Source: Piscinibacter sp. (GTDB lineage Bacteria; Pseudomonadota; Gammaproteobacteria; Burkholderiales; Burkholderiaceae_C). From it: a DNA stretch of 64,000 bases. The stretch lies in NCBI RefSeq assembly GCF_036377015.1, contig NZ_DASUZE010000116.1; one strand, given 5' to 3'. The position numbers and the translations under genes are program-made. The notes under the pieces were generated by a model. The model worked only from the letters and a program-made list of their open reading frames with translations, ran no database searches and was not told where the DNA came from. Shown one piece after another: positions 44,492-64,000 of this stretch (position 1 is its first letter; the number at the start of each line of letters is the position of its first letter).

Positions 44492-47278
<2,787 letters not shown>

Positions 47279-47371
47279 CGTGTTCCCGGGACTTGGTGCG
47301 GCAAGATCTTAGGGACGGGTCCGCAGGGGCGGAATCCCGACCTTGTAGGAGCGCGTCTCCACAAGTCGAAC

Positions 47372-47398
47372 TACGGAACGGGCCTGCGAAAGCGGACA
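47372..47398 (-). promoter_or_regulatory. Candidate ECF promoter TGTCCG-N17-CGTA upstream of kinase 1
   Basis: Sense TGTCCG ctttcgcaggcccgttc CGTA. Confidence 0.6.
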
Positions 47399-47407
47399 AT
47401 GCGCCCC

Positions 47408-48010
47408 ATGCCGTTGGACACCGCCCCCGACCTGCCGCCGATCACGCTGCTGCTGCGCCGCGCCACCGAAGGCGACCGGGCCGCCCTGGACCAGGTCTTC
47501 GAGTCGCTCTACCCCGAGCTGCGGCGCGTCGCCCGCGCCCGATTGCACAGCCAGGGCCGGGCCAACGCGATGAACACCACCATGCTGGTCCACGAGAGCT
47601 TCATGCGGCTGGTCAACGCCAGCGGGCTGCGCCTCGAGGATCGCCAGCACTTCTTCGCCTACGCGGCCAAGACCATGCGCAACGTCATCATCGACGCCGC
47701 GCGCGAGCACCACGCCGAGCGCCGCGGCGGCGGCGCCGAGCACCTCACGCTGGGCGGCGACGACGCCCTGCAGGTGCCCGACACCAGCGCCAGCGCCGAG
47801 CTGCTGCGCGTCAACGACGCCCTGCTCGAGCTCGAGACCCTGGACCCCGACCTGGTCCAGGTGGTCGAGATGCGCTACTTCGGCGGCTACAGCGAGCAGG
47901 AGATCGCCGAGATGCAGGGCGTGACCGAGCGCACCGTGCGCCGCCGCTGGGACAAGGCCCGAGCCTGGCTGTACGTCGCCCTCGGCGGCACGGGCGGCGC
48001 GTCGGCCTGA
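47408..48010 (+). CDS. ECF sigma factor (TIGR02999-like, kinase-associated) 1
   Basis: LYPELRRVAR, MNTTMLVHESFMRL, FFAYAAKTMRNVIID, VEMRYFGG, TVRRRWDKARAWL. Confidence 0.92.
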   Translation: MPLDTAPDLPPITLLLRRATEGDRAALDQVFESLYPELRRVARARLHSQGRANAMNTTMLVHESFMRLVNASGLRLEDRQHFFAYAAKTMRNVIIDAAREHHAERRGGGAEHLTLGGDDALQVPDTSASAELLRVNDALLELETLDPDLVQVVEMRYFGGYSEQEIAEMQGVTERTVRRRWDKARAWLYVALGGTGGASA

Positions 48011-48013
48011 GTT

Positions 48014-48349
48014 TCAGCCGCGCTCCTGCGCCGCGAGCGACTGCTCGCGCCAACGCTGCAGCTGATCGGCGGTGGCCTCGAAGCGCATCCCATACACCCA
48101 GGGCCCCTGCTGCCGCATCTCCAGCGCAAGGCGCGCGGCCTCCGCATCGCCCAGATCGGCCCGCCGGACCAGCGACGCATAGCTGCTGAGCCACAGGTGC
48201 CGCTCCGGCTCGCCGGGCAGCAGCGTCCCGGCGTCGGGCGGCTCGGTCCCGGCACAGGCCAGCAGCAGCAGGCAGGACGCCAGGGCGGCGAGCATCACGA
48301 GCAGGACGCAGGCCGGCCGGACCTGCGCCCTCGGCAGTCGGCCACTCAT
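48014..48349 (-). CDS. Hypothetical exported protein, probably a lipoprotein
   Basis: Basic N-terminus, hydrophobic stretch ending LLLAC; starts 1 nt after the DUF4148-like stop. Confidence 0.6.
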   Translation of the reverse strand: MSGRLPRAQVRPACVLLVMLAALASCLLLLACAGTEPPDAGTLLPGEPERHLWLSSYASLVRRADLGDAEAARLALEMRQQGPWVYGMRFEATADQLQRWREQSLAAQERG

Positions 48350-48350
48350 C

Positions 48351-48635
48351 TCAGCCGCCGGTGTGAAGCGGGTCGACGCGATGCGCATGCGCGGCCGCTA
48401 CCGCCTCCGCCCGCACCTCCTCGCGCGTGCGCACGGCAACGAACGGCGGGTCGGCGCGCAGACTGGCCTCGCCGCGCACGATCTCGCCATCGGCGCGCGC
48501 CTGCGCCAGTGCCGATTTCACGGCCTCGCGGGTCAGGACCGAGGGCTCGATCGGAAATTCGGTGGCCTCCATGGCGATGCTCGCGCCGCCCACCAGCGCG
48601 AGTACCGGAACGAGAATCAACTGCCGGCTGTTCAT
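48351..48635 (-). CDS. DUF4148-like small periplasmic protein
   Basis: Signal peptide; LTREAVKSALAQARADGEI..GE and TREEVRAEA repeats; AAGGAAG RBS. Confidence 0.8.
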   Translation of the reverse strand: MNSRQLILVPVLALVGGASIAMEATEFPIEPSVLTREAVKSALAQARADGEIVRGEASLRADPPFVAVRTREEVRAEAVAAAHAHRVDPLHTGG

Positions 48636-48697
48636 GACGCTTCCTTTGACAATGAGGTTGACGAGACCCCGACCCCTCTCGGCGTCTCGGCCCCATG

Positions 48698-48724
48698 TAC
48701 GTGAACGGCCCGCCGGAGCGGACG
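48698..48724 (-). promoter_or_regulatory. Candidate ECF promoter CGTCCG-N17-CGTA upstream of DUF4148-like gene
   Basis: Sense CGTCCG ctccggcgggccgttca CGTA. Confidence 0.58.
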
Positions 48725-48750
48725 CGGCGGGTCCACAAGCCGAGGGACGC

Positions 48751-51501
48751 TCAGACCAGCGACAGCACCATCGGCAGCCGCGTGACGGCGACGTGCGACG
48801 GCGCCGCCATGTCGGCCCGCATCGACTCGATGCGGTGCAGCAGCGGCGCCGCGTCGCCCAGGCTCTCGCGCAGGGCGGGCAGGGCCGCGTCGATCAGCGC
48901 CAGCGCCTGGGCCGACTCGCCCAGGACATGCCGCGACGCCGCCGCATGCACACCGGCCAGCAGTGCCAGCACATGACCGCTGCCGTAGTCCTGCGCAAAG
49001 CTGCGCCGCGCTTCCTCCAGCGCCTCCAGGGCCTGCGGATGCAGGCGCTGCGCCTGCAGGGCGACGCCCAGCAGCAGGTGGGCCCGGGCCAGGTCGCTGC
49101 CCGACATCGACGGCTGGCGGGCGATCAGCCGCTGCACCCGCACCGCCGCCCGGGCCGGCTCGTCGTCGAAGAGTGCGGCCTCGGCCAGTGCCAGCGTGGC
49201 CGCCACCTCGGTCGCCCTCGGCAAGCGCATGGACGCCGGCGGATCCGCCAGCAGCACCAGGCGGCGGCGCAAGTCGTGGCCCGGCGGCAGCTCGCGATGG
49301 GCGGCGAGCACTCGGCACGCGACGATCAGGGCGCCGTCGTCGCTGGACCCCTGGAGCAGTTGCGGCACGAGCTGCCGGGCGGCCTCGAGCTCGCCGAGGC
49401 GAAGCAGCACCTGCGCCTGGGTCTCGCGCAGCGCGGCGCACGGCGGCGCCCGCGTGCCGCCAGGTCCGCTGCAGCGCGCCAGCGCCGCCTCGATCCCGCG
49501 CAGCGCGCTCGAGTGGCGCCCCTCGTCGACGTGGATCCGCGCACGCTGCAGGTCGATGGCCAGCAGCTCGCCCGCATCGATCCCGGGAATTCGGGTGGCC
49601 CGCGCCGCCGCCCGCTCGATGTGCTCGCGGGCCTGCCGGTGCTGGTGCCGCTCGCCCTCGACCTGCGCCAGGGCGCGCAGGGCGCGCACGGCGCGATCGT
49701 CATCGCCGCGCCCGGCCTCGCCGGCTGCGAGGGCGCGCCGCATCGCGGCCTCGGCGCCTGCCAGGTCGCCGTCGTCGAGCGCCAGCCAGCCACGCGCCTC
49801 GGCGACCCGCGCCTGCAGCATGGCGTCATCGGGGTGCCGCCGCGCCACGGCCTCGGCCTCGTCGAGCAAGGCGCCTGCGCGATCGCGCTGACCCATGCGG
49901 CGGGCGTTCTCGGCCTGACTGGCCTGGGTGCGCGCCAGCGGCCGGGTCAGGCCCAGGCGGCGGTAGAGCGCAGTCGCCTGGCGGAAGCTCGCGTCCGCCT
50001 GGACGTGCTCGCCGCGAAAGGACTGGACCTCGGCGATGCCCTCCAGCACCTCGCCCATCAGCGCCGGCTGCCGTCCCAGGGTGCTGGCGGCCCGGCGCTG
50101 TCCAGCTTCGAGCATGTCGCGCGCGGTGAGGTCGGCGCCGCGCGAGCCGTCGGGATCGGCCATGCGGAACAGGTCGAGCACGAAGTCGCGGGCGGCGCTG
50201 GCGCGCGCCGCTTCCTGGCGCGCCTGCAGGCCCAGCAGCAGCGCGGACGTCGCCGCGGTCGCCAGCATGACCGCCACCGCAAGGCCCGCCGCGACGCCGA
50301 AGCGATGGCGGGCGGCGAGCTTGACCGCGCGGGTCCAGTGCCCCGGCGCGCGGGCGAGCACCGGCTGGCCGGCCAGCCAGCGACCGAGGTCGGCGTCGAG
50401 CGCCTCGACGGAGGGGTAGCGCGACCAGGGCCGCTTGGCCAGGGCACGCAGCGCGACCGCGTCCAGCTCGGGGTTGAGTTGGCGGCGCAGCGCCTTGGCC
50501 GTCGCGCCGCGTGCGGCTGCCACGGCCTCGCCCGCCACGCGCCGGCTGGGCGGCCTCGGGTCCTCCTCGAGGATGCAGTGCTCGAGCTGCGCCGCCGAGC
50601 CGGACGTCGGCTCGTAGGGCGACTCGCCGCACAGCAGCTCGTACAGCACCACGCCCAGCGAGTAGACGTCGCTCGCGGTGGTCAGCGGCAGGCCGCGCAG
50701 CTGCTCGGGGCTGGCATAGGCGGGCGTGAGCAGCCGACCGGCCTGGCACGTGAGATCGCTGTCGATGGAGGCGCCGTCCTCCGACTCCACCAGCTTGGCG
50801 ATCCCGAAGTCCAGCAGCCGGACTTCGCCCTGGGTGGTGACGAAGATGTTGTCCGGCTTGAGGTCGCGGTGGATGACAAGGTTGGCGTGGGCGTAGCGCA
50901 CGGCATCGAGCACCTGCCGGAACAGGCCGATGCGCTGGCGCAGGTCCAGCCCTTCCCGGTCGCAGTAGTCGGTGACGGGCTCGCCCTGCACGTGCTGCAG
51001 CGCCAGCCAGTGCTGGCCCTGGCCGGTCACCCCGGCGTCGTGCAGCGCGGCGATGCGCGGGTGGTCGAGGGTGGCGAGGATGTCGCGCTCGCGCGCGAAG
51101 CGAGCGCTGCTCGCGTCGGCGCCCGGGCCCTGGCTGTCGGGATGCTGGAACAGGAGCTTGATGGCGACCTCGCGATGAAAGGCGCCATCGACCCGCTCGC
51201 CCAGCCACACCTGCGCCATGCCGCCGGTGCCCAGGTGCCGCAGCAACCGGTACGGACCGACGCGCGCGCCGGGCGCCCAGCGGGGCGTGCCACCGAGGTC
51301 GAGCACCGCGATGCCGTCGAGGAAGCCGAGCGCATCCATGCGCTCCCCCGCCGACAGCATGCGCTGCAGCGGCGCGAGCAGCGTGCTGCGCTCGGCGGCC
51401 AGTCGCTCGAGCAACTCGGCCCGGGCGAAGGGGTCGAGCTCGATGGCCTGCTCGTAGATCGACGACAGCGCCTCCCAGTCCGACTCCACACCACCGTCCA
51501 C
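48751..51501 (-). CDS. Membrane Hanks-type Ser/Thr kinase with TPR-like C-terminal sensor (module 2)
   Basis: GTGGMAQV, VAIK, HRDLKPDN, DFGIAK, YASPEQ; start tentatively GTG 51501 (GGAGG RBS; aligns with kinase 1 N-terminus). Confidence 0.9.
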   Translation of the reverse strand: MDGGVESDWEALSSIYEQAIELDPFARAELLERLAAERSTLLAPLQRMLSAGERMDALGFLDGIAVLDLGGTPRWAPGARVGPYRLLRHLGTGGMAQVWLGERVDGAFHREVAIKLLFQHPDSQGPGADASSARFARERDILATLDHPRIAALHDAGVTGQGQHWLALQHVQGEPVTDYCDREGLDLRQRIGLFRQVLDAVRYAHANLVIHRDLKPDNIFVTTQGEVRLLDFGIAKLVESEDGASIDSDLTCQAGRLLTPAYASPEQLRGLPLTTASDVYSLGVVLYELLCGESPYEPTSGSAAQLEHCILEEDPRPPSRRVAGEAVAAARGATAKALRRQLNPELDAVALRALAKRPWSRYPSVEALDADLGRWLAGQPVLARAPGHWTRAVKLAARHRFGVAAGLAVAVMLATAATSALLLGLQARQEAARASAARDFVLDLFRMADPDGSRGADLTARDMLEAGQRRAASTLGRQPALMGEVLEGIAEVQSFRGEHVQADASFRQATALYRRLGLTRPLARTQASQAENARRMGQRDRAGALLDEAEAVARRHPDDAMLQARVAEARGWLALDDGDLAGAEAAMRRALAAGEAGRGDDDRAVRALRALAQVEGERHQHRQAREHIERAAARATRIPGIDAGELLAIDLQRARIHVDEGRHSSALRGIEAALARCSGPGGTRAPPCAALRETQAQVLLRLGELEAARQLVPQLLQGSSDDGALIVACRVLAAHRELPPGHDLRRRLVLLADPPASMRLPRATEVAATLALAEAALFDDEPARAAVRVQRLIARQPSMSGSDLARAHLLLGVALQAQRLHPQALEALEEARRSFAQDYGSGHVLALLAGVHAAASRHVLGESAQALALIDAALPALRESLGDAAPLLHRIESMRADMAAPSHVAVTRLPMVLSLV

Positions 51502-51611
51502 GCGCCCTCCCCCCGGTGCCGTGAATGATGGGTGCGACACCGGCCGGCCGCGTCCTCCCGTTGTAGGAGGCGCGCCGGCCGCCATGCCGGCCCGGCGCCT
51601 ACCCTGACGGG

Positions 51612-52190
51612 ATGGACACGGTCCTCGACCAGAACCCGCTGCCGCGCATCACCGTGCTGCTGCGGCACGCCGCCGGCGGCGACCGCGCGGCGCTGGATGC
51701 GGTCTTCGCCTCGCTCTATCCGGAGCTGAAGCGCATCGCCCGCTCGCGCCTGCGGCAGCATCGCCGCAACGAGGCGATGGACACGACCACCCTGGTGCAC
51801 GAGAGCTTTCTGCGGCTGGTCCGGGCGCAGGACCTGGACCTGGCGGACCGGCGCCACTTCTTCGCCTACGCCGCCAAGGCGATGCGCAACGTGATCATCG
51901 ACAGCGCCCGCAACCAGCAGGCCGCGCGCCGCGGCGGCGGGCTGCACCACGTGACCCTGGCCGACGACGCAGCCCCCGCGCCGCCGGCGAGCGACGACCT
52001 GCTGCGCATCAACGATGCGATGCAGCAGCTCGAGGCGGTCGATCCGCTCCTGGCCGAGGTGGTGGACATGCGCTACTTCGGTGGCTACAGCGAGCGCGAG
52101 ATCGCGGCGCTGCAGGGTGTGGACGAGCGCACCGTGAGGCGGCGTTGGGACAAGGCCAGGGCGTGGCTGTTCGTGGCGCTGGAAGAGTGA
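51612..52190 (+). CDS. ECF sigma factor (TIGR02999-like, kinase-associated) 2
   Basis: LYPELKRIAR, MDTTTLVHESFLRL, FFAYAAKAMRNVIID, TVRRRWDKARAWL. Confidence 0.92.
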   Translation: MDTVLDQNPLPRITVLLRHAAGGDRAALDAVFASLYPELKRIARSRLRQHRRNEAMDTTTLVHESFLRLVRAQDLDLADRRHFFAYAAKAMRNVIIDSARNQQAARRGGGLHHVTLADDAAPAPPASDDLLRINDAMQQLEAVDPLLAEVVDMRYFGGYSEREIAALQGVDERTVRRRWDKARAWLFVALEE

Positions 52191-52417: not shown

Positions 52418-53302
52418 TCAATCGGTCGGCGTGACGCTGACCGACACCTCCATCTCCTGCTGCCCACCGCCGAGGATCACGCCGCGCAGCGGCACGACGT
52501 CGGCGAAGTCGGCGCCCCAGGCGAGCGTGATGTAGCGGTGGTCGGCCGGCTGGTCGTTGGTGGGATCGAACTCCACCCAGCCGCGCAGCGGCGAATACGC
52601 CGCGACCCAGGCGTGCGACGCGTCGACGCCCATCAGCCGCGGCTGGCCGGGCGGCGGCTCGGTGAGCAGGTAACCCGACACGTAGCGCGCCGGCAGCCCG
52701 TGGCCGCGCAGGCAGGCCAGCAGCAGGTGGGCGAAGTCCTGGCAGACGCCGCGCTTCTGGTGCAGCACCTCGTCGACCGACGTGCTGACCGTGGTGGCGC
52801 CCGGCTCGAATTCGAAGTCGCGGTGGATGCGGTGCATCAGGTCGGCGACCGCTTCGTGCCAGTCGCGGCCGGGCTCGAGCGACGGCAAGGCGTACATGCG
52901 CGCGCCTTCGGACAAGGGCACCAGCGGCGTGGGCTCGCACATGCGCGCCGGCACGAGATCGTCCTGCTGCGCGTCGCGCCGGACCGCGTCGCGCACGGCC
53001 TCCCAGGGCTCGCCCTCGGGATGGCGCTCGGGCTGCGGACGGTCGGCCACCTCGACCACGCAGTGCATGCGCACGCGCAGCAGGCGATGCGCCCCGTGCA
53101 GGCCGAAGTGCGTCACCGTATTGCCGAAGCTGTCGGGCGCATCGTGTCGCTCGTCGGGCGGCGGATCGATGGCCAGCGAATGCGACAGCAGCCGCTGCCA
53201 GGGCAACGCACGCGGCGTGAGGCGGGCAAGCTGCCACGACTGCGACACCGGCGCGGTGTACGAATAGTCGGTCTCGTGCTCGACCGTGTAGCGTGGGGTC
53301 AT
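52418..53302 (-). CDS. Transglutaminase-like protein with N-terminal Bact_transglu_N domain
   Basis: YTVEHETDYSY; GVCQDFAH, SHAWV, EFDPTN triad. Confidence 0.92.
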   Translation of the reverse strand: MTPRYTVEHETDYSYTAPVSQSWQLARLTPRALPWQRLLSHSLAIDPPPDERHDAPDSFGNTVTHFGLHGAHRLLRVRMHCVVEVADRPQPERHPEGEPWEAVRDAVRRDAQQDDLVPARMCEPTPLVPLSEGARMYALPSLEPGRDWHEAVADLMHRIHRDFEFEPGATTVSTSVDEVLHQKRGVCQDFAHLLLACLRGHGLPARYVSGYLLTEPPPGQPRLMGVDASHAWVAAYSPLRGWVEFDPTNDQPADHRYITLAWGADFADVVPLRGVILGGGQQEMEVSVSVTPTD

Positions 53303-53304
53303 CT

Positions 53305-55761
53305 TCAGGCGACGAGCGACAGCACGCTGCGCGAAGCGGCATGCGAGAAGAACTTCAGGCTCAACTCGTCCGAGCACGCCAGCGCCGCGCGATGCAGCTG
53401 CTCCAGCACATGCGCCACCGCCTCGCTCTCGGGATGCAGGTCCTGGGGCATCAGGTTGGCCAGGGCGATCCGCCCCGGCGCGAGGACGTCGCTGGCGACG
53501 CGGCCGTGGCTCAGCTCCAGCTTGGCGATGTACTCCGACAGGCCCTTCACCTGGAAGGCCACCGAGCGGGGGTTGGCCTCGTCGCGCAGCAGCAGGTCGA
53601 GCACCGGCAGCCATTCGGGCGCGACGAGGTAGCGCGAGCGGTAGGTCACGCTGGAGTCGGCGAGCTCGAGCAGCCAGTCCAGGCCGTGGTTGCGGCCTTC
53701 ATGGATGGCCACCTGCAGCATGGTGCACAGGTTGGACAGCCGCTCCACCCGCCGCCCGAGCGAGAGGAAGCGCCAGCCCAGCCCGCGCGTCATGCCGTCG
53801 AGGACGAAGCCCGACAGCGTCATCATCGACGTGACCGCGCGATCGAGCCAGGCCAGCGCCAGCGGCAGCGAGGCGCCGTGGCGGAACACCGGATCGCCGA
53901 TCAGCTTGTTGAGCGTGCGCCAGTTGTCGGCCGACATGCGGTCGCGCAGGTTGAAGGCCACGCGTGAGAGCTGGCGCAGCCGCTCGGCCAGCGCGTCATC
54001 CGGGTGGGTGGCGGCGCGCAGCAGGTCGGGCCCGGGGTTCTCGGTGCCGGGCACCAGGCCCATCCGCTCGGCCAGCGCCAGCACGGGCGCCACGCCGTCG
54101 GTCTCGTCGGCGCTGTCGTCGAGCACGCCCGCGATCGCGACGCGCAGCAGGCGCACGCTGGCCTCGCAGCGCTCGCCGTAGCGGCCGAACCAGAACAGGT
54201 TCTCGGCCGCGCGCGACGGCAGGTTGGCGCGCGCGGTCACCAGGTCATCGGGCTCGACGGTGCGCGACAGCAGCGAGAACGCGGCGTTGATGGGCGCGTC
54301 GGAGAGGACCCAGGTGTCCTTCGAGCGGCCGCCGCGCTGCATCCCGATGCCGCGGGTGTCGCCCTCGGCGGCGACGCGCGTCAGGCCGCCGGGCATCACG
54401 CGCCAGCCGTCGGGCGTGGCCACGGCGAACACCCGCAGGCCGACGTTGCGCGCGCGCAGCTGCTCGGCCAGCGCGCCCGGCCCGCGCTCGAGCACCGGCG
54501 CCTGCGAGCCGTGCACCCACTCCTGTGCGACGTAGCGTTGCGGCCGCGAGGCGACGCGGGCGCGCAGGCTCAGCCGCTCGTCGGTGTCGAAGTCGGACGC
54601 AAAGACGCCGCGCTCGCCGCTGGAGCGGTCGAGCGGCTTGATGAGGACCTGGTCCAGCCGCTTCCAGGCATCGATGAAGGCGGCCGGCTCGCCCAGCCAC
54701 CAGGTCGCGATCGAGGGCAGCTTCAGCGGCTCGCCCAGCAGGCGCTCCGACAGCGCGGGGAGGTAGCCCAGCAAGGCGCCCGACTCGAGCACGCCGGAGC
54801 CGAGCGCGTTGGCCAGCATCACCGTGCCGCGGCGCGCGCAATCGGTGAGGCCCGGCACACCCAAAGCGGAGTCGGTGCGCAGCTCCAGCGGGTCGCAGTA
54901 GTCATCGTCCTGGCGGCGCAGGATGGCGTGCACCCGCTTGAGGCCTTCGACCGTCTTCATCCACACGCGGCCGTCGCGCACGGTGAGGTCGTTGCCTTCC
55001 ACGAGCGGAAAGCCGAGGTAGCGCGCCAGCAGCGCATGCTCGAAGTAGGTCTCGTTGTACGGACCGGGGGTGAGCAGCACCACCAGGGGCGCGCCGTCGC
55101 CCTTGGGCGCCCAGCGCATCAGCGACTCGCGCAGCGCGGCGAAGAACGACGCGAGCCGCTCCACGTGCAGCTCGCGGAACATGCGCGGGAAGACGCGCGA
55201 CACGACCAGCCGGTTCTCCAGCGCATAGCCCGCGCCCGATGGCGCCTGCGTGCGATCGCCGACCACCCACCAGTGGCCGTCGGGCGAGCGCGCGAGGTCG
55301 GCCGCGTACTGGAACAGGTGGATCCCGCCGGGCGGACGGATGCCCTGCACCTGATGCAGGAAGCCGCTGTGGCCGAAGACGACCGAGGGCGGAATGGCGC
55401 CCGATCGCATCAGCTCCTGCGGCCCGTAGATGTCGGCCAGCACGCGATTGAGCAGGTCGGCGCGCTGCGCGATGCCGGCCTCGATGGTCTCCCACTCGGC
55501 GGGCGACAGCAGCAGCGGCAGCGGGTCGACCTCCCAGGGGCGGTCGGCGCCCTTGGGGTCGGCATAGACGTTGTAGGTGATGCCGTGCTCGCGGATCCCG
55601 CGCTCCATCAGCGACAGCGTGTCGTTGACCTCCGGCCCCTCACGCTCGGCCAGCGCGCGCAGGAACGCATCCCAGTGCGCCCGCGGCCGGCCGGGAGCCG
55701 AGAGCAGTTCGTCGTAGCGGCCCTCGAGGGCGGCGTAGTCGGCGAGGAGCTGTCGAAGCAT
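53305..55761 (-). CDS. Circularly permuted ATP-grasp fused to alpha-E domain
   Basis: DRTQAPSGAGYALENR, YFEHALLARYLG, NALGSG, MPGGLTRV, SKDTWV, then RAAENLFWFGRYGER alpha-E block; start uncertain (55761 or 55794). Confidence 0.9.
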   Translation of the reverse strand: MLRQLLADYAALEGRYDELLSAPGRPRAHWDAFLRALAEREGPEVNDTLSLMERGIREHGITYNVYADPKGADRPWEVDPLPLLLSPAEWETIEAGIAQRADLLNRVLADIYGPQELMRSGAIPPSVVFGHSGFLHQVQGIRPPGGIHLFQYAADLARSPDGHWWVVGDRTQAPSGAGYALENRLVVSRVFPRMFRELHVERLASFFAALRESLMRWAPKGDGAPLVVLLTPGPYNETYFEHALLARYLGFPLVEGNDLTVRDGRVWMKTVEGLKRVHAILRRQDDDYCDPLELRTDSALGVPGLTDCARRGTVMLANALGSGVLESGALLGYLPALSERLLGEPLKLPSIATWWLGEPAAFIDAWKRLDQVLIKPLDRSSGERGVFASDFDTDERLSLRARVASRPQRYVAQEWVHGSQAPVLERGPGALAEQLRARNVGLRVFAVATPDGWRVMPGGLTRVAAEGDTRGIGMQRGGRSKDTWVLSDAPINAAFSLLSRTVEPDDLVTARANLPSRAAENLFWFGRYGERCEASVRLLRVAIAGVLDDSADETDGVAPVLALAERMGLVPGTENPGPDLLRAATHPDDALAERLRQLSRVAFNLRDRMSADNWRTLNKLIGDPVFRHGASLPLALAWLDRAVTSMMTLSGFVLDGMTRGLGWRFLSLGRRVERLSNLCTMLQVAIHEGRNHGLDWLLELADSSVTYRSRYLVAPEWLPVLDLLLRDEANPRSVAFQVKGLSEYIAKLELSHGRVASDVLAPGRIALANLMPQDLHPESEAVAHVLEQLHRAALACSDELSLKFFSHAASRSVLSLVA

Positions 55762-55810
55762 GGACCGGATTGTCGAGGGTGCGTCGCCGGCCATTGCTCG
55801 GTGTTTTTTC

Positions 55811-55832
55811 GTAGCCCGGGTGGCAACCCGGG
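55811..55832 (+). repeat. GTAG-type REP (variant)
   Basis: GTAGCCCGGGTGGCAACCCGGG. Confidence 0.8.
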
Positions 55833-55837
55833 ACACG

Positions 55838-59230
<3,393 letters not shown>

Positions 59231-59256
59231 GGGATCTCCCCGGGGGAAATGGAAGG

Positions 59257-60057
59257 TCAGGGTGCGGCGGGACGGATCTGCACGCTGACCCGCATCGCCT
59301 CCTCGCCGCCGCCGTGGCGCACGCCCCGGATGGGCAGGCAGGCCGCATAGTCGGGGCCCACCGCGAGGCGCACATGGCGATCATCCATCACGCAGCCGTG
59401 GGTGACGTCGACGCTCAGCCACAGCCGGCCGGGGATGTCGATGCACACGTCGGCCCAGGCATGGCTGGCCAGCGCCGGCGAGTCGGGCGCGTAGAAATAG
59501 CCGCTGACATAGCGCGCCGGCACGCCGCGCGCGCGGCAGGCGGCGATGAACACATGGGCCTGGTCCTGGCAGACGCCGGCGCCGATGTCGAGCGCGTCGA
59601 CCGCGCTGGTCATCACGTCGGTGACGCCGTGCCGGTAGGCCACGCGTTCGCGCACCAGGCGCGCCAGGGCCAGCAGGTTGCGCTCGGCCGGGGCGCCGTC
59701 CAGGGCCTGGGCGCCGATGTTGAGCAGCTGCCGGTCGAAGGGCGTGAGCGCGGTGGGCCGCAGGTACAGCAGTGGCGACGGCAGCGCGGGCGCATCGACC
59801 AGCCATGGCGAGGCATGCGTCTCGACCAGGCCGGCGGCATGGATGGCGCCGCGCCACAAGCGCCGCGCGAGCGTCCAGGTGTGGGCTTCGTTGCCGTAGC
59901 CGTCGCGCTGCGCGAACAGCTTGCCCGGGACCTGCAACGCCCAGCGCAGCACCGTCTGGTGCGCGCTCGGCTGCGGCGTCAGACGCAGCGACTGCGTGCT
60001 GTAGCGCAGCGGGGCGCTGTACTCGTAGTGCGTTTCGTGCTGGATGTCGAGCTTCAT
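59257..60057 (-). CDS. Transglutaminase-like protein
   Basis: IQHETHYEY; GVCQDQAH, SHAWA, VDVT. Confidence 0.92.
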   Translation of the reverse strand: MKLDIQHETHYEYSAPLRYSTQSLRLTPQPSAHQTVLRWALQVPGKLFAQRDGYGNEAHTWTLARRLWRGAIHAAGLVETHASPWLVDAPALPSPLLYLRPTALTPFDRQLLNIGAQALDGAPAERNLLALARLVRERVAYRHGVTDVMTSAVDALDIGAGVCQDQAHVFIAACRARGVPARYVSGYFYAPDSPALASHAWADVCIDIPGRLWLSVDVTHGCVMDDRHVRLAVGPDYAACLPIRGVRHGGGEEAMRVSVQIRPAAP

Positions 60058-61034
60058 GCCTCGACAGGAACGAGGAAGTCGCGACTGATGCCGATGCCCA
60101 GCGTGTTCACACGATCCAGGAACTGCGTGAGGAAGGCATGCAGCCCGGTCGCGAGGATCTCGTCGATGCGGCCGTACTGCAGGTCGGCCCGCAGGCGCCC
60201 TGCGCGGCGCAGCGTCTCGTCGGATTGCTCGTTGGACACCATGCGCAGGTTGGAGACCACCTCGTTCATGCACGCCGCCAGCGAGCGCGGCATGTCAGGC
60301 CGCAGGATCAGCAGCTCGGCCACCTTCTCGGGGCGGATCACGTTGCGGTAGGCCTTGCGATAGACCTCGAACCCGGACACCGAGCGCAGGATGGCCGACC
60401 AGTGATAGAAGTCGTACTCGACGTTCTCGCGCCCGTTGCCGTTGCCGTTGCCGTTGAACGCGCCGAAGAACTCGCTGTCGACCGCATGGAACTTCACGTC
60501 GAGCAGGCGCGCGGTGTTGTCGGCGCGCTCGAGGAAGCTGCCGATGCGCAGGAAGTGGAAGGCCTCGTCCTGCAGCATGGTGCCCACGGTCACGCCGCGC
60601 GACAGGTGCGAGCGGAACTTGACCCACTCGAACGCCGTGCCGGGGTCCTTCTGGAAGGCGCCGGTGGCGACCATGCGCTGGAACTCCAGCCAGGTCTGGT
60701 TCTGCGTCTCCCACACCTCGGTGGTGAGGGTGCCCCGCACCGCCCGCGCGTTCTCGCGCGCGGCCATGAGGCAGCTGCGGATGCTCGACGGGTTGTTGGC
60801 GTCGGACACCATGTAATCCATGACGGTGCGCGCAGTGATCGCGCCGTAGCGCTTGGCGAAGTCGCCCGACAGCTCCGAGATGCTGAGCAGCCCCTTCCAC
60901 CCCTTCTCGGCCGCGTCGGCCGACTGCGGCAGCAGCGAGGTCTGGTAGTTCACGTCGAGCATGCGCGCGGTGTTCTCGGCGCGCTCCATGTAGCGCGCCA
61001 TCCAGAACAGGTGGTCAGCGGTTCGCGACAGCAT
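60054..61034 (-). CDS. Alpha-E domain protein (DUF403)
   Basis: MLSRTADHLFWMARYMERAEN, GSFLERADNTARLLD, MPRSL. Confidence 0.93.
   Translation of the reverse strand: MLSRTADHLFWMARYMERAENTARMLDVNYQTSLLPQSADAAEKGWKGLLSISELSGDFAKRYGAITARTVMDYMVSDANNPSSIRSCLMAARENARAVRGTLTTEVWETQNQTWLEFQRMVATGAFQKDPGTAFEWVKFRSHLSRGVTVGTMLQDEAFHFLRIGSFLERADNTARLLDVKFHAVDSEFFGAFNGNGNGNGRENVEYDFYHWSAILRSVSGFEVYRKAYRNVIRPEKVAELLILRPDMPRSLAACMNEVVSNLRMVSNEQSDETLRRAGRLRADLQYGRIDEILATGLHAFLTQFLDRVNTLGIGISRDFLVPVEA
60433..60456. repeat. (CCGTTG)4 hexamer repeat encoding NGNGNGNG in alpha-E
   Basis: Four exact tandem copies. Confidence 0.8.
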
Positions 61035-61049
61035 TCTTGTGTCTCCCGG

Positions 61050-62486
61050 TCAGGCTTCGAGCACCCAGGTGTCCTTGGTCCCGCCGCCTTGCGACGAGTT
61101 GACCACCAGCGAACCTTCCTTCAGCGCGACCCGCGTGAGTCCGCCCGGCACCATCTGCACCGTCTTGCCCGACAGCACGAACGGCCGCAGGTCGATGTGC
61201 CGCGGCGCGATCCCCGACTCGACGAAGGTCGGGCAGGTCGACAGCGACAGCGTCGGCTGCGCGATGTAGCCGGCGGGATTGGCCTCGAGCGCCTTGCGGA
61301 AGTCGGCGATCTCCGCCTTGCTCGCGGCCGGCCCCACCAGCATGCCGTAGCCCCCCGCCCCGTGGACCTCCTTCACGACCAGGTCGGGCAGGTGGTCCAG
61401 CACGTACTTGAGGTCGTCGGCCTCGCGGCACAGGTAGGTCGGCACGTTGTTGAGGATCGGCTTCTCGCCCAGGTAGAACTCGATCATCTTGGGCACGAAG
61501 GGATAGATCGACTTGTCGTCGGCCACGCCCGTGCCGATGGCGTTGGACAGCGTCACGTTGCCGGCCCGGTACACGCTCAGCAGCCCGGCGCAGCCCAGGG
61601 TCGAATCGGGACGGAAGGCCAGCGGATCGAGGAAGTCGTCGTCGAGGCGGCGGTAGATCACGTCGACCCGCTTGGGCCCCTGGGTGGTGCGCATGTAGAC
61701 GAAGTTGTCGCGCACGAAGAGATCCTGGCCCTCGACCAGCTCCACGCCCATCTGCTGCGCGAGGAAGGCGTGCTCGAAGTAGGCGCTGTTGTACATGCCC
61801 GGCGTGAGCAGCACGACAGTGGGATCGTTGACCGCCGCGGGCGCCACCGCGCGCAGCGTCTCGAGCAGCAGGTCGGGATAGTGCGCGACCGGCTCGACGC
61901 GGTGCTGGCTGAACAGCTCCGGGAACAGCCGCATCATCATCTTGCGGTTCTCGAGCATGTAGCTCACGCCGCTGGGCACGCGCAGGTTGTCTTCGAGCAC
62001 GTAGTAGTTGCCGCTGCCGTCGGCGTTGGCGGCGCGCACGATGTCGATGCCGGCGATGTGCGAGTAGACGCCCGCCGGCACGTCGACGCCCATCATCTCG
62101 GGCCGGAACTGGGCGTTCTTGAAGACCTGCTCGGCGGGGACCAGGCCGGCGCGGATGATCTCCTGGCCGTGGTAGACGTCGTGGATGAACCGGTTGAGCG
62201 CCGTCACGCGCTGGCTCAGCCCCTTTTCCATCTCGACCCACTCATGGGCCGGAATGACGCGCGGGATCAGGTCGAAGGGGATCAGGCGCTCCGTGCCCGA
62301 GCCGTCTTCGTCCTTGGCGCCGTAGACCGCGAAGGTGATGCCGACGCGGCGGAAGATCATCTCCGCCTCTTCGCGGCGCGAGCGCATCACGTCGGGCGGC
62401 TGCTCGGCGAGCCAGCGCTGGTAGCCCCTGTAGTGCTCCCGCACCGCAGCGGGAGTCGCTTGCATCTCGTCGAAGCTGGGTCTCAT
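61050..62486 (-). CDS. Circularly permuted type 2 ATP-grasp protein (DUF404/DUF407)
   Basis: [62 protein letters not shown]; GGAGGAG RBS before ATG 62486. Confidence 0.94.
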
Positions 62487-62512
62487 CGGCACATCTCCTC
62501 CGGCGGCGATTT

Positions 62513-62530
62513 AGCAATATCCAGGCCACG
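62513..62530 (-). promoter_or_regulatory. Sigma54-type -24/-12 promoter
   Basis: Sense cgTGGCctggataTTGCt: GG-N10-GC spacing, 26 nt before the ATG. Confidence 0.72.
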
Positions 62531-62536
62531 CGCCTC

Positions 62537-64000
62537 TCATCGTGCGGCCTGCGAGCCATGGTGCCAGTAGCGCATGGCAACGTCACGTTGGCAAACACCC
62601 TGCCCCCGCGCGCCGCCCGGCCATTGCCAGGCGCCGCAGGCGGGGCTCGCGACGGTGATGATGCTCCGTTCGCGGTAGCGTGACAGAACTTCCGGCGCGG
62701 GATGCCCGAAGCGGTTGCGATAGCCGGACTGGAACACCGCCACGGACGGATGGACCGCATCGAGGAAACGCGCGGTCGACGACGTCTTACTGCCGTGGTG
62801 CGGCGCGACCAGCACGTCGGCGGCGAGCCGCTCGGCGTGCTCGTCCAGCAGCCAGCCCTCCTGCGGGCGCTCGATGTCACCCGTGAGCAGCGCGCGGCCG
62901 GTGGCCGGGCTGCTCACCTTCAGCACGCAGGACATGGCGTTCGACTTGAGGCCGCCGAGATAGGCCCAGGCCGGCGGCTGCAGCACCTCGAAGCGCACGC
63001 CGTCCCAGTCCCAGGACTGGCCGTCCTCGCAGCGTGCATGCGTGGGCGCCAGCGCGAGCAGCGGGTGGCCGGCTTCCAGCGAGCTCCAGAGATCGTCCAC
63101 CGGCAGCGCCTGCAGCAGCGCGCGGGCGCCGCCGACGTGGTCGATGTCGCGATGGCTCAGCATCAGCCGGTGGATGCGCGACTCGCCGCGCGAGCGCAGC
63201 AGCGGCAGCAGCACGCGCTGCCCGGCGTCGGCGTCGCGGCCGTACTGCGGGCCGGTGTCGTAGACCAGCAGGTGCTCGCGGGTGCGCACCAGCACCGCCG
63301 TGCCCTGCCCGACGTCGACCGCGAGCAGCTCGAAGCGGCCCTGCGCCGGCCGCGCCGGCACCGGCATGAGCAGCGGCAAGGCCAGCGGGAGCGCCAGCGC
63401 GCGCAGCCGCCAGGGCACCGGCAGGACCAGGAGGACGGCGCCGGCCAGCCCCGCCGCCTGCGCCCAGGCCGGCGCGACGGGCACGGTCCAGACGGCCCCG
63501 GGCAGGCCTGCCGCCCAGGCCAGCCCCAGGCACAGGCGCTGGACCACCCATGCTGCCAGGCCCCACAGGGGCGCGGCCACGATGCCCAGCAGCGCCAGCG
63601 GCGTGATGACCAGCGTGACCAGCGGAATGGCGACCAGGTTGGCCGCGAAGCCCACCAGCGACACCTGCTGGAAGAACACCAGCGTCAAGGGCGTGAGACC
63701 GAGCGTGGCGATCGCCTGGCCGCGCAGCTCGGCACGCAGCCGCGACAGCGCCGCGCGCGCACGTCCCTCGTCCGACGCGGGCCTGCCCGGCCCCGAGGCC
63801 ATCAGCAGGCCCACCGCGACGAAGGACAGCCAGAACCCGGGCTGGAGCAAGGCCCAGGGATCGAGCCCGGTGACCACCACCGCCGCGGCGAGCAGCACCA
63901 GCGGCCAGGGCCAGTGGCGCCCGCCGGCCTGCAGCGCCGTCACCGCGGCCAGCATCCAGACGGTGCGCTGCGACGGAACGCCCCAGCCGGAGAACAGCGC
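62537..64000 (-). CDS. comEC: DNA internalization competence protein ComEC/Rec2 (5' end off window)
   Basis: GFWLSF, DVGQG, DTG, SHRDIDHVGG, PHHGSKTSS, NRFGHP. Confidence 0.93.
   Translation of the reverse strand, partial: ALFSGWGVPSQRTVWMLAAVTALQAGGRHWPWPLVLLAAAVVVTGLDPWALLQPGFWLSFVAVGLLMASGPGRPASDEGRARAALSRLRAELRGQAIATLGLTPLTLVFFQQVSLVGFAANLVAIPLVTLVITPLALLGIVAAPLWGLAAWVVQRLCLGLAWAAGLPGAVWTVPVAPAWAQAAGLAGAVLLVLPVPWRLRALALPLALPLLMPVPARPAQGRFELLAVDVGQGTAVLVRTREHLLVYDTGPQYGRDADAGQRVLLPLLRSRGESRIHRLMLSHRDIDHVGGARALLQALPVDDLWSSLEAGHPLLALAPTHARCEDGQSWDWDGVRFEVLQPPAWAYLGGLKSNAMSCVLKVSSPATGRALLTGDIERPQEGWLLDEHAERLAADVLVAPHHGSKTSSTARFLDAVHPSVAVFQSGYRNRFGHPAPEVLSRYRERSIITVASPACGAWQWPGGARGQGVCQRDVAMRYWHHGSQAAR

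Follow-up and report, generated by a model that had tools for sequence, protein, structure and literature searches.

Gene content and layout of the cluster

A stretch of 64,000 nt from Piscinibacter sp. (RefSeq assembly GCF_036377015.1, contig NZ_DASUZE010000116.1), referred to below as the window, carries a run of six genes, G1 to G6, that encode two circularly permuted (cp) ATP-grasp domains, two alpha-E domains, three transglutaminase (TGase)-fold domains and one DUF2126 domain. This inventory, and the same-strand order cpATP-grasp, alpha-E, TGase, TGase-DUF2126, cpATP-grasp-alpha-E, TGase, had been read from the sequence in an earlier description of the locus (the original prediction), and Pfam searches demonstrated that both are correct. 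The cluster is an intact and ordinary copy of a very widespread system, and not a new kind of system. Its genes and the candidate promoter in front of them are as follows:

62513..62528, minus strand: candidate sigma-54 promoter (TGGCCTGGATATTGCT, a -24/-12 element), 36 nt 5′ of the G1 start, within the 44 nt that separate G1 from comEC
61050..62492, minus strand: G1, circularly permuted ATP-grasp ligase, 480 aa (Pfam CP_ATPgrasp_2, 1.8e-169)
60054..61034, minus strand: G2, alpha-E domain protein, 326 aa (Pfam Alpha-E, 2e-100, full length)
59257..60057, minus strand: G3, small TGase-fold cysteine enzyme, 266 aa (Pfam Bact_transglu_N and Transglut_core)
55838..59230, minus strand: G4, TGase-DUF2126 fusion, 1130 aa (Pfam Bact_transglu_N, Transglut_core and DUF2126, the last with 1341 bits over residues 276-1127)
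53305..55836, minus strand: G5, natural cpATP-grasp-alpha-E fusion, 843 aa (Pfam CP_ATPgrasp_2, 4e-152, and Alpha-E, 8e-60)
52418..53302, minus strand: G6, small TGase-fold cysteine enzyme, 294 aa (Pfam Bact_transglu_N and Transglut_core)

The G+C content of the region is approximately 71%, and numerous spurious long open reading frames (ORFs) are present. Only minus-strand frames, forming a single set, gave Pfam family matches, and two other frames tested over the 3′ end of the cluster gave no family match. None of the six genes was matched by an NCBIfam model. G1 can start at a GTG at 62492 or at an ATG two codons inside (62486, giving 478 aa); the boundary given originally, 62486, coincides with this in-frame ATG, and the GTG start is possible as well.

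The junctions between the genes, from G1 to G6, measure 15 nt, an ATGA overlap of the G2 stop with the G3 start, 26 nt, 1 nt and 2 nt. Because these junctions are tight, and because inside the cluster no sigma-70-like promoter was found and terminator-like sites were not in excess, the six genes, spanning about 10 kb, read as a single operon. There is no space within its junctions for a gene encoding a tag peptide. Direct inspection of the N-terminal sequences, including those of G3, G4 and G6, revealed no signal peptides.

A conserved candidate sigma-54 promoter and probable nitrogen regulation

The element TGGCCTGGATATTGCT upstream of G1 has the GG-N10-GC spacing of sigma-54 promoters. By itself the motif is not significant in the window (2 matches vs. 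0.94 expected), and its weight comes solely from conservation across relatives. The same element was found at the same distance in the two closest relatives, and the strict pattern TGGC-N7-TTGC, which was scored in the wider set of relatives, preceded G1 in 17 of 45 cases and G4 in 32 of 77, with 0.02 expected per upstream region. Before the internal genes it was rare (three cases for G5, two for G6 and one for G3). Where the two halves of the cluster, G1-G2-G3 (module 1) and G4-G5-G6 (module 2), are divergent in relatives, each has its own copy of the element, and where they are colinear a copy stands before the first gene only. The genome carries two rpoN genes, and one ntrC gene, scoring above the equivalog cut-off, adjoins glnA. 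The candidate promoter lies just past the comEC stop codon, and any enhancer would therefore be situated within the comEC coding sequence, into which the region where an NtrC enhancer is expected falls.

Published expression data point in the same direction. In Burkholderia cenocepacia H111 the strongest NtrC- and sigma-54-dependent genes under nitrogen limitation include I35_5080-83 (annotated as DUF404/407, DUF403, TGase and large TGase), whose expression in an ntrC mutant is lower by log2 6.0-9.4 (PMC5491218). From annotation and gene order, rather than alignment, we infer that they are the counterparts of G1 to G4. The products annotated for I35_5080-5083 (BCAM1233-1236) match the first four genes of the colinear order seen in Burkholderia, whose proteins are 28-68% identical to those of the window and differ further in the G3 orthologue, described below. 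In Pseudomonas putida, PP_2685-88, which are of the module 1 type with Anbu, are upregulated on nitrate vs. ammonium and under nitrogen limitation (PMC8050072, PMC3325844), and a co-variation of these domains with urea-metabolism domains has been reported from marine metagenomes (PMC3597751). By analogy with these homologues, the Piscinibacter operon is most likely induced by nitrogen starvation via NtrC. The link to nitrogen limitation, which the original prediction had made when suggesting experiments, is thus strengthened by the conserved promoter together with the published Burkholderia and P. putida regulon data. The family is carried by a large share of Proteobacteria and is among the most strongly nitrogen-regulated genes in the species studied.

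Paralogy, linkage and distribution of the two modules

G1 is 35% identical to the N-terminal half of G5, and G2 is 24% identical to its C-terminal half; at these identities a local duplication as the source of the doubled gene set is ruled out. Judged by this divergence, G1-G2-G3 and G4-G5-G6 are two anciently diverged paralogous modules. The genome encodes no further cpATP-grasp or DUF2126 genes beyond the cluster. The families themselves are abundant: the 90%-identity protein search gave at least 8000 homologues of G4, the named ones being annotated as ‘transglutaminase family protein’ or ‘DUF2126’, and a scan of genome contigs matched at least 600 stretches.

To describe the phyletic distribution we used 301 evenly drawn Pseudomonadota genomes. 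DUF2126 was present in 78 of these (26%; 46 of 184 genera) and cpATP-grasp in about half (148). All 78 DUF2126 genomes had at least one cpATP-grasp gene and 72 (92%) had two or more, whereas among the 223 genomes lacking DUF2126 one cpATP-grasp gene was found in 63 and two in 7. The pattern is nested, module 2 being an add-on that is almost never present without module 1. The word 'doubled', used originally, suggests something unusual; what it describes is the combination of two old paralogues that nearly all DUF2126 genomes possess. In three genomes of one family (G037, G077 and G213; 2.2-2.4 Mb) DUF2126 was accompanied by a single cpATP-grasp gene of the size of a standalone G1, located 2-4 kb away. 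The DUF2126 protein of this lineage seems to have module 1 as its only partner, a G5-type fusion being absent.

Linkage was examined in 80 related loci, 50 of which had at least 8 kb of sequence on each side. The order G4-G5-G6 was kept wherever the flank sufficed. G1-G2 was located within 10 kb of module 2 in 37 of the 50 fully flanked loci, with module 1 divergent in 17, upstream and colinear in 10, downstream and colinear in 7 and convergent in 3. The colinear six-gene order was also found in four Burkholderia genomes (L035, L038, L040 and L064), and Piscinibacter and Rubrivivax relatives have the same order from G2 on, their contigs being cut before G1. A separate G3 is the rarer state: G3 is often missing in relatives, and in 11 loci G4 directly follows G1-G2, its TGase domain taking the G3 position. 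Module 2 is nested phyletically within module 1, linkage has survived rearrangements and G4 can replace G3; these findings argue that the two modules are functionally coupled and are better studied together than separately. With its six genes under a single promoter and Anbu absent, the Piscinibacter cluster offers a compact construct for expression of the complete two-module system, if the organism or a close relative is culturable.

We also considered an accessory gene between G4 and G5 and rejected it, as the inserts found at this position in relatives are heterogeneous (hybrid histidine kinase, tetratricopeptide repeat (TPR)-GT9, trypsin-like, HAD and alpha/beta hydrolase). In two Burkholderiales relatives the insert is a PAS-containing hybrid histidine kinase (L055:13666-15657 and L056:15225-17243).

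ATP-grasp, alpha-E and transglutaminase domains

G1 matched the structural-genomics PDB entry 3n6x over its full length (E = 7e-226), which places it in the cpATP-grasp fold class. The model of G5 had a predicted local distance difference test score (pLDDT) of 84.4 and a predicted template modelling score (pTM) of 0.84, and its N-terminal half superposed on 3n6x with a template modelling (TM) score of 0.87. The same half superposed on eukaryotic-type glutathione and homoglutathione synthetases with TM scores of 0.6-0.67 (E 1e-8 to 1e-11, identity 10-14%) and, less closely, on E. coli glutathionylspermidine synthetase. By these comparisons, the ATP-grasp fold is nearest to that of glutathione synthetase. 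Glutathione synthetase of the eukaryotic type and glutathionylspermidine synthetase share the circularly permuted ATP-grasp fold with G5 but differ in that the ATP-grasp of the cluster is always paired or fused with alpha-E. For the alpha-E half of the G5 model no PDB counterpart was matched.

Phosphate release from ATP has been reported for a homologous ATP-grasp protein encoded in a Yersinia Anbu operon (PMC6376114). A 2026 preprint assayed two M. tuberculosis homologues, Rv2411c and Rv2567, for synthesis of gamma-aminobutyric acid (GABA)-trehalose with a negative result, which we regard as uninformative on the function of the family.

The Cys-His-Asp triad, stated originally to be intact in all three TGase domains, is demonstrably so. 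G3 has C163/H199/D217, the G4 triad C180/H229/D245 is invariant in 40 homologues, and the G6 triad C187/H230/D246 is conserved at 95% or more in 70 homologues. In the AlphaFold model of G4, which was mediocre overall (pLDDT 68.6), the N-terminal TGase domain matched 3isr, a putative cysteine protease of Cytophaga, and TgpA. In the Burkholderia orthologues of G3 (L035:9530-10114 and L064:7976-8887) Ser replaces the catalytic Cys (G-T-S-R-D vs. G-V-C-Q-D), and a Gln/Ala-rich insert of about 45 residues precedes the His. Judged from sequence, these proteins may be inactive or may use the Ser as nucleophile.

Comparison with known systems

In its three families and their order, G1-G2-G3 agrees with the Anbu-type operon (COG2308, COG2307, COG1305 and Anbu), known from P. 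putida (PP_2685-2688) and Yersinia bercovieri and reportedly described by Valas and Bourne in 2008 and by Iyer et al. in 2009. The likeness extends to regulation, homologues of that operon being induced by nitrogen limitation, and to structure, as its solved member is 3n6x, which G1 matches near full length. The difference is that Anbu is missing from the Piscinibacter locus and genome and that the triad is probably co-transcribed here with a second module. Of the features of the cpATP-grasp/alpha-E/TGase system, the cluster thus has the ATP-grasp, the adjacent or fused alpha-E and a TGase with intact triad, and lacks Anbu, which is frequent but not universal in the system.

A search of the genome with PF00227 matched HslV and one gene like the betaproteobacterial proteasome homologue (BPH), both on other contigs, and no Anbu; a follow-up with Anbu mutants, as suggested originally, is therefore not possible in this genome. 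No dedicated protease adjoins the cluster. The second match (C65:54647-55150; L084:1426-2007, minus strand) is a proteasome-fold gene of 193 aa that is weakly HslV-like and is not Anbu. It lies between aceF, encoding pyruvate dehydrogenase E2, and lpdA, which we take to be the typical slot of the BPH of Valas and Bourne.

G4-G5-G6 is identical in content and order to the DUF2126 module (TGase-DUF2126, cpATP-grasp-alpha-E fusion and small TGase on the same strand), presumably the type represented by Rv2566/Rv2567/Rv2569c of M. tuberculosis. There is no substantive difference; in Piscinibacter this module follows module 1 within a shared operon and has no sigma-54 promoter of its own.

Proposed function and alternatives

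The explanation we favour, and to which we give about half of our confidence, is that the cluster is one sigma-54 operon of about 10 kb, induced by nitrogen starvation via NtrC, which joins two interdependent modules of amide-bond chemistry. We infer the following chemistry. Each ATP-grasp domain with its alpha-E partner would convert a carboxylate to an activated acyl-phosphate and couple this to an amine, a type of reaction carried out by glutathione synthetase and glutathionylspermidine synthetase, the closest structural relatives of the ATP-grasp. DUF2126 would act as a further, third ATP-dependent ligase of carboxylate to amine, probably one of glutamine-synthetase type, and the three cytoplasmic TGase-fold Cys-His-Asp enzymes would hydrolyse or transfer amide bonds, plausibly of the gamma-glutamyl type. 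Overall, the operon would serve the capture or remobilisation of nitrogen in times of scarcity. Because the fold of the ATP-grasp most resembles that of glutathione-type synthetases, the operon has no room for a tag gene and no protease partner was found, we lean towards a substrate that is a small molecule or a short peptide (gamma-glutamyl or peptide-amine in type) rather than a protein tag.

Several results weigh against this explanation. Neither with a strict TGCACC-N5-GGTGCA-like pattern nor with up to 3 mismatches was a convincing NtrC site found in the window, and such sites were not enriched in the relatives; because of this, the activator could be another of the approximately ten enhancer-binding proteins of the genome. 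Proteins of Anbu operons formed no detectable complexes and had no peptidase activity (PMC6376114, PMC5666114), the literature reports no substrate for any family member, and our computed results do not separate a small-molecule from a protein substrate. The assignment of DUF2126 to the glutamine-synthetase type is weakly supported: the sole coherent matches of this part of the G4 model were several glutamine synthetases over about 290 columns, and these were weak (E 0.17-0.75, Foldseek probability 0.2-0.6). Alignment of the DUF2126 profile with that of 30 GlnA sequences by hhalign was not significant (probability 0.2%), the motif lines GVIEVN/GQxEI and GTGGGNH/NGSGMH being aligned without significance. 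Sequence and profile (hmmsearch) searches of the PDB with G4 matched the TGase domain and left DUF2126 unmatched, and the central DUF2126 segment, searched against Pfam at E values up to 10, matched DUF2126 alone. A glutamine-synthetase-like fold for DUF2126 is at most hinted at by the model. Its description as a ligase, which the original prediction had adopted, is a prediction from the literature that the fold and profile tests neither confirm nor refute, and to which they add little (Foldseek probability at most 0.6, hhalign 0.2%).

The main alternative concerns the substrate. Clusters of this kind were reportedly proposed by Iyer, Abhiman, Burroughs and Aravind in 2009 to tag proteins, the ligases adding amino acids or peptides in the manner of RimK or pupylation, the TGase-fold peptidases removing them, and turnover of the tagged proteins recycling amino acids in nitrogen starvation. 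In mycobacteria, amino-acid recycling via pupylation matters under nitrogen starvation, and PafA and Dop share a glutamine-synthetase-like fold, which would suit such a role, as would the grouping of three ligases with three hydrolases under common regulation. The proposal is one of comparative genomics as it is quoted in PMC5666114 and PMC6376114, and the original prediction had rendered the literature correctly in speaking of a predicted peptide or amide ligation system. Yet the operon leaves no space for a tag gene, the genome has no Anbu and no other dedicated protease stands beside the cluster, the enzymes closest to the ATP-grasp in structure have small peptides as substrates, and a modified protein has been reported for no family member, so that we consider protein tagging unlikely. 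A more specific form of it is, in our estimation, quite unlikely: both modules would constitute a proteobacterial protein-modification cycle induced by nitrogen starvation, a functional analogue of pupylation without a tag gene, in which selected proteins receive amino-acid or gamma-glutamyl tags from DUF2126 and the ATP-grasp/alpha-E pairs, the TGase-fold enzymes edit or remove these tags, and modified proteins are steered to turnover, with recycling of their nitrogen. ATP-grasp ligases also build nitrogen-storage polymers in other systems, and several ligases and hydrolases occur together in the locus, as would be expected if a polymer similar to cyanophycin or poly-gamma-glutamate were made, to be degraded by the TGases. 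This possibility, raised in the original prediction, fits poorly with induction by nitrogen starvation, since homologues respond to a lack of nitrogen and not to its excess. The promoter is likewise of the sigma-54 type, and Pfam searches found no second ligase domain like that of cyanophycin synthetase, no export function and no membrane protein. We regard a storage polymer as very improbable.

The interdependence of the modules and the location of the TGase-fold enzymes can be disputed separately from the interdependent amide-bond chemistry that we favour. Were the adjacency of the modules mere inherited gene order, they could be functionally independent, and it is true that module 1 occurs alone in many genomes (the 63 of 223 DUF2126-negative genomes with one cpATP-grasp gene), that it lies more than 10 kb from module 2 in 13 of the 50 loci, and that the neighbourhood of comEC and G1 is plainly conserved gene order only. 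But adjacency survives at least four different rearrangements, module 2 is never found without cpATP-grasp and in 92% of cases is accompanied by two, G4 occupies the G3 slot in 11 loci, and both modules have the same type of promoter; independence therefore appears improbable to us. As for location, we take Rv2569c of M. tuberculosis to be a member of the small TGase family, also in view of its conserved domains. These predict a cysteine protease, and the recombinant protein degrades casein, fibronectin and E-cadherin (PMC11081392), which would be consistent with the small TGase-fold proteins being secreted proteases of broad range. Rv2569c, however, is blocked by serine-protease and not by cysteine-protease inhibitors, a misfit with a Cys-His-Asp enzyme (PMC11081392), and in Piscinibacter G3, G4 and G6 lack signal peptides and lie inside an operon of cytoplasmic, translationally coupled enzymes. 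Secretion of these proteins is scarcely credible to us.

Neighbouring genes

Upstream of the cluster, comEC (62537-64000, minus strand) directly precedes G1. In Comamonadaceae comEC sits between divergent modules (L078:7417-9888 and L044:7370-9847). We considered it as a part of the system and rejected it, its position there and here being a matter of inherited gene order.

Downstream, and convergent on G6, lies an extracytoplasmic function (ECF) sigma factor gene (approximately 51612-52190) that is paired with a Ser/Thr kinase-TPR gene (48751-51585). The stretch 44492-52190 of the window contains two such pairs in tandem, each with the ECF sigma gene divergent from the Ser/Thr kinase-TPR gene. 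The first sigma gene lies at approximately 47440-48010, and the first kinase-TPR gene, judging by ORF size and position only, would correspond to 44492-47278.

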